Source: Eledone cirrhosa (lineage: Eukaryota). From it: 64,000 bases of DNA. The position numbers and the translations under genes are program-made. Shown piece after piece: positions 1,492 to 34,218 of the stretch (positions within the stretch are counted from its first letter, which is position 1; every line of letters begins with the position of its first letter). The notes under the pieces were generated by a model. It was not told where the DNA came from and did no database searches. It saw only the letters and a program-made list of their open reading frames with translations. The stretch covers positions 140,368,001-140,432,000 of the forward strand of contig OZ024740.1 in the NCBI GenBank assembly GCA_964016885.1, written 5' to 3'.

Positions 1492-2020
1492 TCAAAACTC
1501 AGGCCTCTCTAATTTAAGTGCTTCACAAATATGATTGCATTTTGAGTGGACTTTATTGAAGAAAAGTTTGAAACCTTCAATTCCAAAGTCACATGTGCTG
1601 CTATCACCTGTAACTGTATGAAACTGCGGATCAGTGAGATAGATTACATTCTGTACACCATTTGGCAACCAGCCTTGTAGATCAACAACCATTAACTTGC
1701 CACAAGATTTAGAATATGTAAAGTGAGTGAAAGCTGTTGACATGTCACAACCTCTAGGATTACAGTAATCATAGTTATTGGTTAATTTCAGAAATTCTCC
1801 CTCTACGAATGGCTCGATGTTCACCCAGAACTCTACTTCACCATTGGCATCCAATAAATGCATGTAAGCAGCCGGCAGATAATGAATACGCATGTCAGAT
1901 TTGTAAGATTTGAGAGCTTGGTTGAAATATGTCACGTAGAGGCCTGCCTCCATCTGGCAAACAACATCATCAATATAATCAAGTGGATCTTTCTCTTTTC
2001 GGTGGCGTTTGCAAATGTAT
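1492..2020 (-). CDS. ALPK1: ALPK1-like terminal exon, alpha-kinase catalytic domain
   Basis: [39 protein letters not shown], and the zinc-binding H-x2-CNxxC motif. Stop TGA at 1494-1492. Confidence 0.96.
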
Positions 2021-32000: not shown

Positions 32001-34218
32001 CCAAAGTCACAGGAATCACTCCCGCGCAGATCGAGGAGCACATCAACGCCGCTTGGACCAACATCTGTGACCGGCGGAAGCTCCCAAGGAACAGCAGACT
32101 ACCCACCTTCTAACACCTTGTGAAAACACACAAACAGGGACCTGACCTGAAGATCAGACCTATTGTATCGAGTGCGGAAGGACCGCTCTACAAAATTTCA
32201 TGGCTCCTAGCTAGAATACTCAAACCCATACACGTAAACAGCCCCGAGGAGGTGTTGGAGCGCCTGCATCAAAGGATCTTGACACCAGAAAGGCTAACAG
32301 ATATGCCTTCAGCCTTGATGTAGTCGCTCTTTACACCTCGGTCCCGGCGCTCCCGGCCGTTGATATACTGATGGAACGCATCCAATCTACCGACCTACAC
32401 TGTTTTGGGCTCACCCCCACTGACATCCACCAACTCCTATCCGTCGTCGTTGACAATACATACTTCGGTTTTCTCGACCAAACATACCAGCAAACCTCGG
32501 GGCTGCCCATGGGCTCAAGCCTGTCGGGTGTGCTAGCGATCTCATACATGGACAGCCTCGAGGGCAAGGCACTCAACACCTGCCACCCCAACGCCGTCGC
32601 TTTTTTCTCAAGGTACGTGGACGACATCCTCATCCTCACATCTTCCCAGGAGATGGCGAACGGAATTTATGAGACGTTCAACAACACAGACGAGAACATT
32701 CATTTCAGTGTTGAACACCCCAGCGACGACGGGTCCCTTGCCCTCCTCGACTTCCGAATCAACATCACGGAGCAGGGAGGGATCCACACCAACTTCTACC
32801 GCAAGGCAGCCTGCAGGGACTTGTTCGTCCACTACAAGTCTGCCCTCCCTAACAGTGCTAAAAGAGGGTACATCACGAACGAGATCACGCGAATTAAAAA
32901 CAGATGCAGCGATCCCATGAGTGGTGTCACCCACACCAAGCGATTCCTCAAAGTGCTGGAGACAAACAGGTACCCTGCCTCGCTCGCAAACAGGGTAAGA
33001 GACACCAGACGCAAGAGGCAGAGAAACACCCAAGGCAAGTGCTTCCTTAAAATACCACACCTGGGCAAGAATACCACCAACGCTATCCGCAGGGCTCTAC
33101 GGAGAGAGGGCCTCGACATCCACCTGGCCCACTCGGGCCCCTCCCTGCGAAGATGCCTCTCCAGGAAACCCGGGTAATCGACTGATGCGTGTTCCCTCAG
33201 AAACTGCCCGATGTGCCATACGAACTGTTGCTTACGCACATACGTCGTGTATAAGGTAGAATGTGACAAGTGCAACCACTACTATATCGGTAGCACAATC
33301 CGGCCGCTATACATCCGGATCAAGGAACACATCAACACCAGGGCCTCATCTTTCCGGAAACACATAACCAAATGCGGAAACAAAAACGGAAGGCCCATTG
33401 TCACAGTGCTAGCGACAGAACGCAATGTCGGCACGTTACGAATCAAGGAAGCACTTTCGATCAAACGCCTAGGGCCACAAGTAAATAACCGATCCGAGAG
33501 AAGCGAAATGAGGTGGTTGGTATAAACAAACGAGACAACACACGCGCACACACACACGCATACACAGTAGCATTCAAACGATTATTATTGTGTGTATAGC
33601 ACCGCCACCGTCCACCGACCAGGCAGACTACTACTACCATACGAATATACTACACTGCTAGTACCTAAAACCAGCACAGATAAATAATACAATGGATTGA
33701 TAGCTAACGCCATCCCACTCCCACAATTATAAGAACTACTTCGACCATCGACCTTTGCTTGACTGCACTTATTCCGCGCGCGCGCACGCTCTGCAGAATA
33801 CCTCAGTTAGTCACAAACAGCAAACAGCAGAGGACACGTACCGTTCATCTCCGACAGATAACCTCCCCCCACCGCCGGAAAACCCCCAGTTGATGGATGC
33901 AAATCCGAAATATAGGGACAATTAAATCTCTCCCAAGGTAACTCTATCTTGTGTTATTATTTTTATTTTTTACGCTCTTTCCTACGTTCCTCTACACACT
34001 ATACATCTCATTCTACATTCCCTTACATCTCTCTTTTCACCACCGGATCCTGTTACCCGGAGAATTACCCATCTGCATTGTTGAGGCTTCCAAAACGACC
34101 AAAAGAAAATAAATGTTGTTTTTTTTGTTTTAAGTACTTTACCTGGTTTGAGAGAGTCCACTTTTTTAGCCAGTTGAGGGAACTGCTCTGACATCAACTT
34201 GTTTAGCTGTAGAGTCAT
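1492..34218 (-). CDS. ALPK1: Alpha-protein kinase 1-like gene (ALPK1-like), 10 coding exons, ~1348 aa
   Basis: Manual splice: 34218-34143, 30247-30027, 27449-27191, 21120-21019, 14540-14281, 12804-12587, 9422-7400, 5665-5461, 3490-3337, 2020-1492. All introns are GT-AG with matching phases, and the total is 4047 nt = 1349 codons. Motifs [61 protein letters not shown] and the kinase motifs parallel vertebrate ALPK1 as I recall it. Confidence 0.9.
2885..3035 (+). mobile_element. tRNA-derived SINE (CORE-like family); related copies at ~9700-9860 (-), ~25495-25630 and ~34785-34920
   Basis: A-box-like tagctacatggttaag, B-box ggttcaatc, shared gcaagtgtc...ggaatttggtag body. Confidence 0.55.
3337..3490 (-). 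CDS. ALPK1: ALPK1-like coding exon 9 (kinase N-lobe: AVLYHYNP...W...TIVYI...KKGSFRDVY...HQDEPLG)
   Basis: Acceptor gtag|AA and donor AA|gtttgt. Matches ALPK1 ALLLKY...WTAQETIVYLG...KKGRQR...HQEEILG. Confidence 0.92.
4600..4932 (-). mobile_element. Composite SINE: tRNA-like head plus RTE-LINE 3' tail
   Basis: Same sequence as the 22366-22790 and 22803-23168 copies. Ends in (GAT)n. Confidence 0.75.
5461..5665 (-). CDS. ALPK1: ALPK1-like coding exon 8 (VHNIHS...FINRLQ)
   Basis: Acceptor tttgcag|GTA and donor CAGA|gtaaat. Phases 0/1 fit both neighbours. Confidence 0.82.
6150..7393 (+). mobile_element. Old degenerate RTE-clade LINE fragment with an expanded (GAT/AAT)n tail
   Basis: Colinear nucleotide similarity to 19090-20300 (e.g. 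tgtccatgggaactcttctatgct, ccctcagggaaattgcc), with many stops and indels. Confidence 0.8.
7400..9422 (-). CDS. ALPK1: ALPK1-like coding exon 7 (2023 nt; end of the N-terminal domain plus the repeat-containing linker)
   Basis: Acceptor tatag|A, donor CAG|gtgtgc, open frame throughout (ORF 7037..9406). A giant linker exon is also a feature of vertebrate ALPK1. Confidence 0.85.
7846..8880 (-). repeat. Coding 45-bp minisatellite, ~23 units encoding ([15 protein letters not shown])n
   Basis: Visible 45-bp period. A variant unit (tagattctaccatgtag) recurs at 8101 and 8551, a 450-bp higher-order period. Confidence 0.97.
11253..11841 (+). mobile_element. 5'-truncated RTE LINE copy
   Basis: Near-identical to 20075-20663. 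Ends in (GAT)n. Confidence 0.9.
12587..12804 (-). CDS. ALPK1: ALPK1-like coding exon 6
   Basis: Acceptor tttcag|ATC and donor CG|gtgagt (phase 2, matches exon 7). [14 protein letters not shown] resembles ALPK1 VTGKQELHSFVKA. Confidence 0.85.
13305..14053 (+). mobile_element. 3' fragment of a restriction-like-endonuclease (CRE-like) non-LTR retrotransposon
   Basis: [10 protein letters not shown]...[24 protein letters not shown]...AEERKTNKY...FAPVAIE matches the RLE motif pattern. 3' UTR with AATAAA and poly(A) at ~14018-14053. Confidence 0.75.
14281..14540 (-). CDS. ALPK1: ALPK1-like coding exon 5 (LWKEA...DLKGISYS...SLFFARHY)
   Basis: Acceptor tttag|GA and donor TAT|gtaaat. Matches ALPK1 MWYEA...DKKGLSTS. 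Confidence 0.9.
14795..16140 (-). mobile_element. CR1/L2-group LINE fragment (RT to 3' end), frameshifted
   Basis: [55 protein letters not shown] and RKHFFMLRV motifs, with an (ATT)n tail. An isolated copy of the same 3' end lies at 13145-13203 (+). Confidence 0.92.
16630..16935. repeat. Compound TA/TG/CA microsatellite; similar tracts at 3050-3120, 3990-4048, 4312-4428, 18360-18840, 23168-23440 and 43627-44170
   Basis: Dinucleotide runs seen directly. Confidence 0.95.
18843..20663 (+). mobile_element. 5'-truncated but uninterrupted RTE-clade LINE (RT plus embedded PHD-like finger), inserted in a (TA)n tract
   Basis: The frame extends upstream of ORF 18952 ([29 protein letters not shown]). 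[32 protein letters not shown] and RRLRWYGHV motifs, and a (GAT)n tail. Confidence 0.95.
21019..21120 (-). CDS. ALPK1: ALPK1-like coding exon 4 ([30 protein letters not shown]); absent from the ORF track
   Basis: Acceptor tcctag|CT and donor TTAG|gtaacc, 102 nt, phase 1/1. Matches ALPK1 GTWLYR...SVCIQIRGQILQKLG. Confidence 0.9.
   Translation of the reverse strand: MTVEMASGITEINSSISMSMQFVCRSKGRYITT
21140..21240 (+). mobile_element. Short Penelope-like C-terminal remnant
   Basis: Translates as [19 protein letters not shown], resembling the W.I...A.PY...C.LCL.E motif at the end of PLE ORFs. Confidence 0.45.
22366..23168. mobile_element. Two composite tRNA/RTE-tail SINEs arranged tail-to-tail (22366-22792 +, 22803-23168 -)
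   Basis: The head gaaggcgcatggattagtggttagagc...gagttcaattc and the RTE tail are mirrored around a central (TA)n. Confidence 0.85.
23550..24030 (+). mobile_element. Tc1/mariner transposase pseudogene (N-terminal HTH region)
   Basis: [28 protein letters not shown]...[14 protein letters not shown]...D..R.GR is a typical mariner HTH. It carries an in-frame stop and is truncated. Confidence 0.88.
27191..27449 (-). CDS. ALPK1: ALPK1-like coding exon 3 (FVVDRFMYW...[11 protein letters not shown]...)
   Basis: Acceptor aatcag|ACT and donor GAAG|gtaaat. Matches ALPK1 FLVDRFLY / APQVVIRQARI. Confidence 0.92.
28562..30573 (-). mobile_element. Cluster of ~7 co-oriented tRNA-derived SINEs with a MetaSINE-like core, flanking exon 2
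   Basis: Copies at about 28562, 28765, 28945, 29110, 29461, 29812 and 30388. On the minus strand: A-box TGGCAGTATCGG, B-box GAGTTCAAATC and core GCCTTTCATCCTTACGGGGTCGATAAAATAAAGTACCAG. Other copies lie at ~1140-1400, ~12420-12550 and 36700-36884. Confidence 0.85.
30027..30247 (-). CDS. ALPK1: ALPK1-like coding exon 2 (DLPNELKS...[10 protein letters not shown]...ADLLL)
   Basis: Acceptor cttcag|AT and donor TTG|gtaagt. LPxEL and WPF motifs match the ALPK1 N-terminus. Confidence 0.85.
30960..33935 (+). mobile_element. Penelope-like element (RT + GIY-YIG endonuclease), near full length, with frameshifts and stops
   Basis: N-terminal FLKRC..IP, LGPKF, PSDKG, KTHK..IRPIVS, GLPMGS, RYVDD, FYRK, then VVYKVEC..C..YIGST.R.L..RIKEH. 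Confidence 0.95.
34143..34218 (-). CDS. ALPK1: ALPK1-like coding exon 1 ([25 protein letters not shown])
   Basis: ATG in GGCACCATGA Kozak context. Donor CCAG|gtaaag is phase 1, matching the exon 2 acceptor. Sequence similarity is weak, so this is the least certain exon. Confidence 0.65.

Follow-up and report, generated by a model that had tools for sequence, protein, structure and literature searches.

The 64,000-nt window analyzed here (Eledone cirrhosa, assembly GCA_964016885.1, contig OZ024740.1, positions 140,368,001 to 140,432,000) contains an intact, single-copy octopod orthologue of ALPK1, the receptor kinase by which vertebrates detect bacterial ADP-heptose; the octopod gene is spliced at the three junctions examined. 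What is new here is, judging from the sequence, a variant at the specificity positions of a real, intact ALPK1. Encoded on the minus strand, it runs from the ATG, which begins at position 34218 of the window, to the TGA stop, which ends at 1492, as delineated by six-frame translation and by tblastn with relatives from Octopus and Argonauta. Ten exons were joined to a spliced model of 4047 nt (1348 aa) with zero internal stops, and all nine introns (9/9) are GT-AG with matching phases. From N- to C-terminus, the protein consists of the ALPK1 N-terminal domain, a linker of 15-aa tandem repeats, and an alpha-kinase. An initial annotation, made from the letters alone, had proposed ten exons splicing in frame into a helical domain, a linker, and an alpha-kinase; with every intron GT-AG and in phase, and three of the nine junctions present in a spliced contig, this model holds.

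The exons (all on the minus strand) place the diagnostic residues as follows; human numbering was checked on the 5z2c chain for residues 32-261 and elsewhere via marmot ALPK1. Exon 1 (34143..34218; aa 1-25) provides the ATG and the start of the N-terminal helical domain. Exon 2 (30027..30247; aa 26-99) encodes WPF (F72, human F61) and a mollusc-type short loop without a counterpart of Q67, and exon 3 (27191..27449; aa 100-185) encodes DRF (R123, human R116) and IRRAR (R157 and R160, human R150 and R153). Exon 4 (21019..21120; aa 186-219) contributes a helix with QWHY. Exon 5 (14281..14540; aa 220-306) contains DLKGISY (D243, K245, and S248, corresponding to D231, K233, and S236, with Y249 at the site of T237), Y266 (Y254), and SLF (F301, human F295). 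Further helices of the domain are encoded by exon 6 (12587..12804; aa 307-378), and the last ones by exon 7 (7400..9422; aa 379-1053), which then continues into a long low-complexity linker ending in exon 8 (5461..5665; aa 1054-1121). Exon 9 (3337..3490; aa 1122-1172) encodes the N-lobe of the kinase with a KKGSFR loop, and exon 10 (1492..2020; aa 1173-1348 plus the stop) encodes its YICK lysine, its DLQG and TDPQ motifs, and, toward the C-terminus, its H/C residues (CNHIC). WPF, IRRAR, DLKG, and YICK were located in the model exons, DRF and SLF in the spliced protein.

Evidence for splicing came from a run of unrecorded kind (X4), the contigs of which were compared with positions 1000-7800 of the window. 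Contig 25 (2202 nt, 0 mismatches) joins 7400-7800, 5461-5665, 3337-3490, and 1000-2020 contiguously, with the introns absent; it thus matches the junctions of exons 7 to 10 (3/9) exactly, includes the 3'-terminal 401 nt of exon 7, and continues into the 3' untranslated region. Runs X1-X3 yielded unspliced pieces only, and none of the runs recorded as RNA contained this region. The six upstream junctions are based on splice signals and on colinearity with predicted proteins from Octopus and Argonauta. As exon 7 is a single open frame from the helices of the N-terminal domain through to its donor, and as exons 7 to 10 are joined in the contig, both ALPK1 domains reside on one transcript. Exon 3 has one match only in the genome.

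The linker contains a coding tandem repeat in exon 7 (7854..8946, minus strand; 24.3 copies of 45 bp with 93% matches), corresponding to a 15-aa unit. Octopod ALPK1 linkers share a Cys-containing 15-aa repeat, with related repeats in Octopus and Argonauta, and its copy number differs greatly by species. The Octopus database models examined stop within, or just past, the repeat linker and thus before the kinase; among the sequences examined, a complete cephalopod ALPK1 was obtained only from the Argonauta model and from the gene in the window. The truncation of the Octopus models may be one reason why the cephalopod gene is easily overlooked.

Both domains had ALPK1 as their best match. Exon 10 matched PF02816 (E 2e-32) and, among kinase structures, ALPK1 far better (E 1.6e-33) than eEF2K (9e-17), MHCK (1e-11), or a TRP-channel kinase (2e-6); exon 3 matched the ALPK1 N-terminal domain (5z2c, E 9.8e-9) and nothing else. 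The N-terminal domain is 81% identical to that of Octopus bimaculoides, which agrees with the cephalopod origin presumed by the initial annotation. The O. bimaculoides domain, modeled with AlphaFold (pLDDT 93), retrieved the ADP-heptose complex 5Z2C with Foldseek at E 3e-15, the next listed non-ALPK1 structure following at 1.6e-3, and gave Z 33-35 against ALPK1 structures, compared with 19.9 for the next fold. In a kinase tree of 34 rows, none of them ALPK2, ALPK3, TRPM, or vertebrate eEF2K, the window protein paired with that of Argonauta (100/100), and a 92/85 branch separated four other octopus alpha-kinases from all ALPK1-type rows. Membership in the eEF2K family was rejected on the basis of these E values and this separation; the kinase domain is not closer to eEF2K, MHCK, or TRPM6-7 than to ALPK1, and the eEF2K-like gene occupies a locus of its own on C12. 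Thus, the orthology and domain layout proposed initially were borne out by the best matches of both exon 10 and the N-terminal domain, and the phylogeny gave no grouping with eEF2K-like or other octopus alpha-kinases. An NCBIfam search returned zero matches above the cut-off, and a complex predicted for the Argonauta N-terminal domain, kinase domain, ADP, and Zn (alignments not used) reached a score of 0.10 and a mark of 0.34. Elsewhere in the genome, alpha-kinases were found at five loci (G000:C25 at 14.79, 14.83, and 17.23 Mb; C17 at 42.26 Mb; C12 at 42.63 Mb). One of these is an eEF2K-like gene; the other four are divergent alpha-kinase domains, mostly on a single exon, and one of the four lies in a 4592-aa open frame.

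Compared with vertebrate ALPK1 (PDB 5Z2C, 8ZD3, and 9J4P), the window protein has the same domain order and fold and counterparts of F61, R116, R150, R153, D231, K233, S236, Y254, F295, and V1092. Its K1177 corresponds to the catalytic lysine of YVGK (K1067, a number obtained by offset count from marmot). The pocket residues and the catalytic lysine named in the initial annotation therefore agree with the alignments to 5z2c and marmot ALPK1. F61, Q67, R116, D231, and F295 are positions which we take to be ligand contacts or pocket positions of human ALPK1. The window protein differs from the vertebrate one in that the Q67 loop is deleted (Q67 aligns with V78, immediately before a deletion of ~10 residues), T237 is replaced by Tyr, S277 is replaced by Glu (as in most invertebrate rows), and the linker consists of about 24 near-identical 15-aa repeats.

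To place these exchanges, 26 selected rows were aligned, comprising 6 from vertebrates, 15 from other animals, 2 of STAND-kinases, and 3 from bacteria; fragments and the divergent paralogues of molluscs did not enter the table. F61, R116, R150, R153, and K233 were invariant in all of the rows (26/26), so that the basic pocket residues do not vary between bacteria and mammals at an overall identity of about 25-30%; D231 was kept in 22/26. Q67 was present in vertebrates, amphioxus, Lineus, Owenia, and an animal-like metagenomic contig described below (L034). Position 237 was Tyr in all five cephalopod-type rows (the window, two Octopus, Argonauta, and one inferred cephalopod) and in none of the other 21, which had Ser (13), Ala (3), Thr (2), Met (1), Cys (1), or Gly (1); in a wider alignment, most vertebrate-like rows had Thr. 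The window protein thus lacks Thr237 and Gln67, the mammalian heptose-specificity residues, but these do not define the family, as several named vertebrate ALPK1 proteins are without Thr237: Ser is found in Polypterus (P0019/P0209) and lamprey, Ala in Anguilla (P0020), and Met in Sorex fumeus (P0032). The Met annotated in Sorex fumeus is that of the human ROSAH variant T237M, and could stem from faulty sequencing or assembly. Molluscs also have a second ALPK1-like paralogue (P0022 of Potamilus, P0049 of Babylonia, P0051 of Batillaria, and P0067 of Pomacea) with a well-conserved kinase and a degenerate pocket (R116, R150, and/or K233 lost), which forms its own clade (100/98) in the kinase tree.

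The literature on human ALPK1 assigns roles to several of these positions. R150, R153, and K233 are necessary for activation by ADP-heptose (PMC11614533, PMC10723048), and Thr237 hydrogen-bonds a hydroxyl of the sugar (PMC10723048, PMC11614533). T237 is a gatekeeper without which human ALPK1 is activated by host nucleotide sugars, and T237M retains the ADP-heptose response (PMC11614533). The initial annotation had correctly listed Q67 and T237 as lacking counterparts, and had overlooked the weight of T237 as gatekeeper. ROSAH T237M and the engineered T237A resemble the octopod protein in having lost the hydroxyl of the gatekeeper threonine; the cephalopod Tyr, in contrast, is natural, fixed in the lineage, and accompanied by other pocket changes. 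With it, nature provides a test case for the way in which bacterial and host nucleotide sugars are told apart in the pocket.

From the structure and the conserved pocket and catalytic residues, we infer every functional step of the following scheme, which to us has an even chance of being correct as a whole: octopod ALPK1 would be a cytosolic, nucleotide-sugar-gated immune kinase, with a nucleoside diphosphate (NDP)-heptose as likely agonist, loosened or shifted selectivity, and an output via a TIFA-like adaptor, TRAF6, and NF-kB, along the lines of the ALPK1 pathway as described in PMC8985801. The NDP-sugar would bind to the helical domain via R123, R157, R160, and K245, the basic pocket holding the diphosphate. 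Bacterial ADP-heptose would be among the agonists; with the Q67 loop missing and Tyr249 in place of the Thr237 gatekeeper, however, selectivity for the sugar would be relaxed or altered. Once liganded, the domain would reach the kinase over the length of the repeat linker, dock there, and activate it, and the kinase would phosphorylate a TIFA-like FHA adaptor, leading to TRAF6 recruitment and activation of Rel/NF-kB.

The same exchanges may have gone further and retuned the pocket altogether. Heptose would then be shut out or of minor importance, and the physiological agonist would be some other nucleotide sugar, such as a host compound (UDP- or GDP-mannose, or ADP-ribose signaling stress) or a bacterial sugar of another kind. 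The strict distribution of Tyr (5/5 versus 0/21), which points to lineage-specific fixation, and the deletion of the Q67 loop are in favor of such a change. We nevertheless consider it unlikely, as position 237 is naturally variable in named vertebrate ALPK1, a residue other than Thr hence need not imply a new ligand, and both D231 and K233 are retained.

As to the output of the proposed heptose-responsive kinase, five TRAF MATH matches were found in the genome, the most divergent of which hits TRAF6 alone at E<=1e-5, and Rel-homology exons were found at two loci (at the domain level, which does not separate NF-kB from NFAT). A search for FHA domains, in which no TIFA sequence served as query, gave 18 FHA matches among 21 candidates scored. 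By eye, we took 16 of the 18 to be other FHA proteins. The remaining two are putative TIFA-like exons on minus strands: L012 (L012:973-1977, equivalent to G000:C6 at ~12.36 Mb), with a PSEGLD motif near its C-terminus, and L010 (L010:1381-1890, equivalent to G000:C27 at ~21.49 Mb), preceded by a long poly-Q stretch. They are 35% identical and each other's sole relatives in the genome. L012 has one PxExx[DEFWY] motif near the C-terminus, which we take to be a TRAF6 site and which could occur by chance. No upstream exon was identified for L012 and no downstream exon for L010, and the single-sequence fold of L012 reached pLDDT 30. The search for a TIFA-like FHA protein suggested by the initial annotation hence produced two candidate exons, both of them leads only. 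Exon-by-exon searches of the genome with GmhA, the RfaE kinase, and the RfaE nucleotidyltransferase, which cannot demonstrate absence, gave no match, and because of this heptose would plausibly be non-self for the animal.

Several of these observations weigh against a heptose-gated octopod ALPK1 that signals through TIFA. At the level of family assignment, the outgroups of the kinase tree sit on long branches, and its rows are restricted. At the pocket, Q67 is absent from 12/12 mollusc rows, with a common deletion directly after it, and Tyr249, a much larger residue than Thr, Ser, or Ala, could obstruct the subsite for the sugar. At the output, L012 reached TIFAB at E 0.86 only and the TIFA cluster in the Atlas with a score of 0.94, third in rank among generic FHA clusters; L010 and a two-sequence L012/L010 profile gave no TIFA match, and neither candidate lies near the gene (the window and 10 kb on each side), which also sets it apart from vertebrate ALPK1. 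Finally, the lack of matches to the three heptose-biosynthetic enzymes stands beside a report of such enzymes in protostomes, including some Mollusca (PMC11573728).

The uncertain identity of L012 and L010 also leaves room for a ligand-gated kinase with an output other than TIFA and NF-kB; its substrates would be of another kind, for instance myosins that serve vesicle traffic, and the FHA candidates would be unrelated to it. TIFA is reported only in vertebrates (PMC11573728), and ALPK1 is described to phosphorylate myosin IA on Golgi-derived vesicles (PMC2827801). That the two candidates are mutual sole relatives, that L012 is TIFA-like by its features including the PxExx[DEFWY] motif, and that TRAF6-like and Rel genes are present render this output improbable. 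A vestigial pocket, with a kinase that is constitutive or regulated otherwise, for instance by the repeat linker, would have a precedent in the second mollusc paralogue, where pocket loss has occurred within the phylum, but is very improbable for the window protein, as it retains all basic pocket residues that are invariant from bacteria to mammals.

The orthologue in Eledone bears on the origin of the receptor. When the whole library was searched with the N-terminal domain, 146 matches were obtained (E<=0.001), and the 30 proteins looked up included named ones from a chiton, abalones, limpets, other gastropods, a bivalve, a nemertean, an annelid, and amphioxus. Many invertebrate matches had been named alpha-protein kinase 1-like automatically, and most carry the kinase as well; ALPK1-type proteins with both domains were found in chiton, gastropods, nemertean, annelid, and amphioxus. 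Those named alpha-protein kinase 1-like (from Liolophura, Haliotis, Patella, Littorina, Lineus, Branchiostoma, and Octopus sinensis) belong to the same family as the window protein but, except for the Octopus rows with Tyr, have Ser or Ala at position 237. By comparison, a commentary from the group behind the 2024 cross-kingdom study of heptose states that ALPK1 and TIFA homologues are confined to vertebrates, and argues that heptose synthesis was lost in deuterostomes and the receptor then evolved in vertebrates (PMC11573728); an older review likewise regards ALPK1-3 as vertebrate kinases (PMC2827801). Neither a description of an invertebrate ALPK1 nor a link between ALPK1 and STAND proteins was found in the literature covered, a search outside of which most subscription papers fell, and the accessible portions of PMC13143021, PMC13283784, and PMC6752478 contain nothing on invertebrates. 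The cephalopod gene contradicts the published vertebrate-only statement, yet the family was already known to annotation pipelines (RefSeq), and interest in it is tempered because invertebrate ALPK1-like genes have been named there automatically. An intact mollusc ALPK1, together with its annelid, nemertean, and amphioxus relatives, undoes the published timing of the receptor's origin. The initial claim that a cephalopod has a kinase of a pathway characterized mainly in vertebrates is thus correct as to the gene, which is not peculiar to cephalopods.

The same search also returned three proteins with NB-ARC and TPR domains (P0052, P0069, and P0076). P0052 was taken as bacterial from its annotation and architecture. 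P0069 (L019:5845-8184) derives from a metagenome-assembled genome of Crocosphaera, and P0076 (L032:4014-6623) lies among integrase-like, HNH, and AbiEii open reading frames (ORFs) and has a near-copy, P0186, with an N-terminal CHAT domain. About 450 bp upstream of P0069, on the same strand, lies a gene of the N-acetylneuraminate synthase (NeuB) family (L019:3140-5389); this is one case and maybe chance. The C-terminal regions of the bacterial proteins (P0052, P0069, and P0076/P0186) keep F61, R116, R150, R153, K233, and S236, and scored 80-103 bits with a profile built without the bacterial rows. With the same profile, reversed sequences scored <0, 300 shuffles (234 of which scored) <=2.7, and 13 TPR controls <=13.9, on which basis generic TPR similarity was rejected as the source of the matches. 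Moreover, residues 19-149 of the cyanobacterial region aligned with human ALPK1 44-176 (E 1.6e-5), while the top TPR matches lay at about 160-260. Homology of the bacterial C-terminal region to the ALPK1 pocket domain is therefore well supported by sequence, and a common role in sensing is hypothetical. As in Avs-type layouts, the bacterial STAND/NLR-like proteins combine an NTPase with a module at the N-terminus, which in P0186 is CHAT; unlike the window protein, they have no kinase, and their residue at D231 is Glu or Asn. The family is rare, as 1/401 genomes of the Crocosphaera phylum contained it, namely the seed itself. Word-index searches, which are insensitive, gave 3 and 3 matches, the bacterial sensor returning itself, its near-copy, and 9 TPR proteins; an Atlas search with the bacterial sensor returned generic TPR clusters only and not ALPK1, and in PADLOC the matches were limited to partial ones with TPR and SAVED_CHAT, with none to Avs.

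A metagenome scan uncovered contigs, animal-like by similarity, in which a STAND module and the kinase are combined. L034 (47-3373) is a single intronless ORF of 1109 aa that comprises a P-loop region, the complete pocket domain (with Q67, and with Cys at position 237), and then an alpha-kinase; it adjoins a Death-domain ORF. Its P-loop region has no Pfam match and, in a comparison of nine sequences only, matched the NB-ARC of L033 (E 6e-10) and P0076 (E 9e-7). In L033 (95-2945) and L035 (102-2525), an NB-ARC ORF (E 1.3e-8) abuts a sensor-kinase ORF in a different frame. No STAND P-loop NTPase was found in the 1348-aa model, in the window, or, by a search without positive control, in the genome. 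A domain tree of 28 rows placed the bacteria on one side of a 100/100 branch, and the vertebrates likewise, with an open backbone that gives no direction of transfer. ORFs of the L033-L035 type may stand between NLR-like proteins and ALPK1, and the occurrence of the pocket domain both in them and in the bacterial NB-ARC/TPR proteins suggests that ALPK1 derives from an NLR-like receptor. Tentatively, and with rather more doubt than confidence, the pocket might then be an old NLR-like sensor: bacterial effector-NB-ARC-sensor proteins would presumably detect nucleotide sugars, some animals would keep a STAND-sensor-alpha-kinase (L034, L033/L035), ALPK1 would have lost the STAND module and be much older than vertebrates, and the cephalopod Tyr would read different or wider sugars via a TIFA-like adaptor. 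If real, the NB-ARC homologues in bacteria and the ORF that joins STAND, sensor, and kinase would place ALPK1 among the animal immune sensors with prokaryotic counterparts.

Beside the ALPK1 gene, the window contains a tandem duplication (47930-57182 versus 54752-63999; period ~6.8 kb, 96.5% identity over 9.3 kb) in low-complexity DNA upstream of the gene, which is either a true array or an assembly artefact. The window also carries retroelements: intron 1 contains a Penelope-like reverse transcriptase with GIY-YIG (32215-33522, plus strand); intron 4 contains a long open reverse-transcriptase frame of a long interspersed nuclear element (LINE; 18844-20367, plus strand) and a broken LINE (14950-16204, minus strand); and broken gag, RNase H, and integrase pieces (39415-40644, plus strand) lie upstream of the gene.

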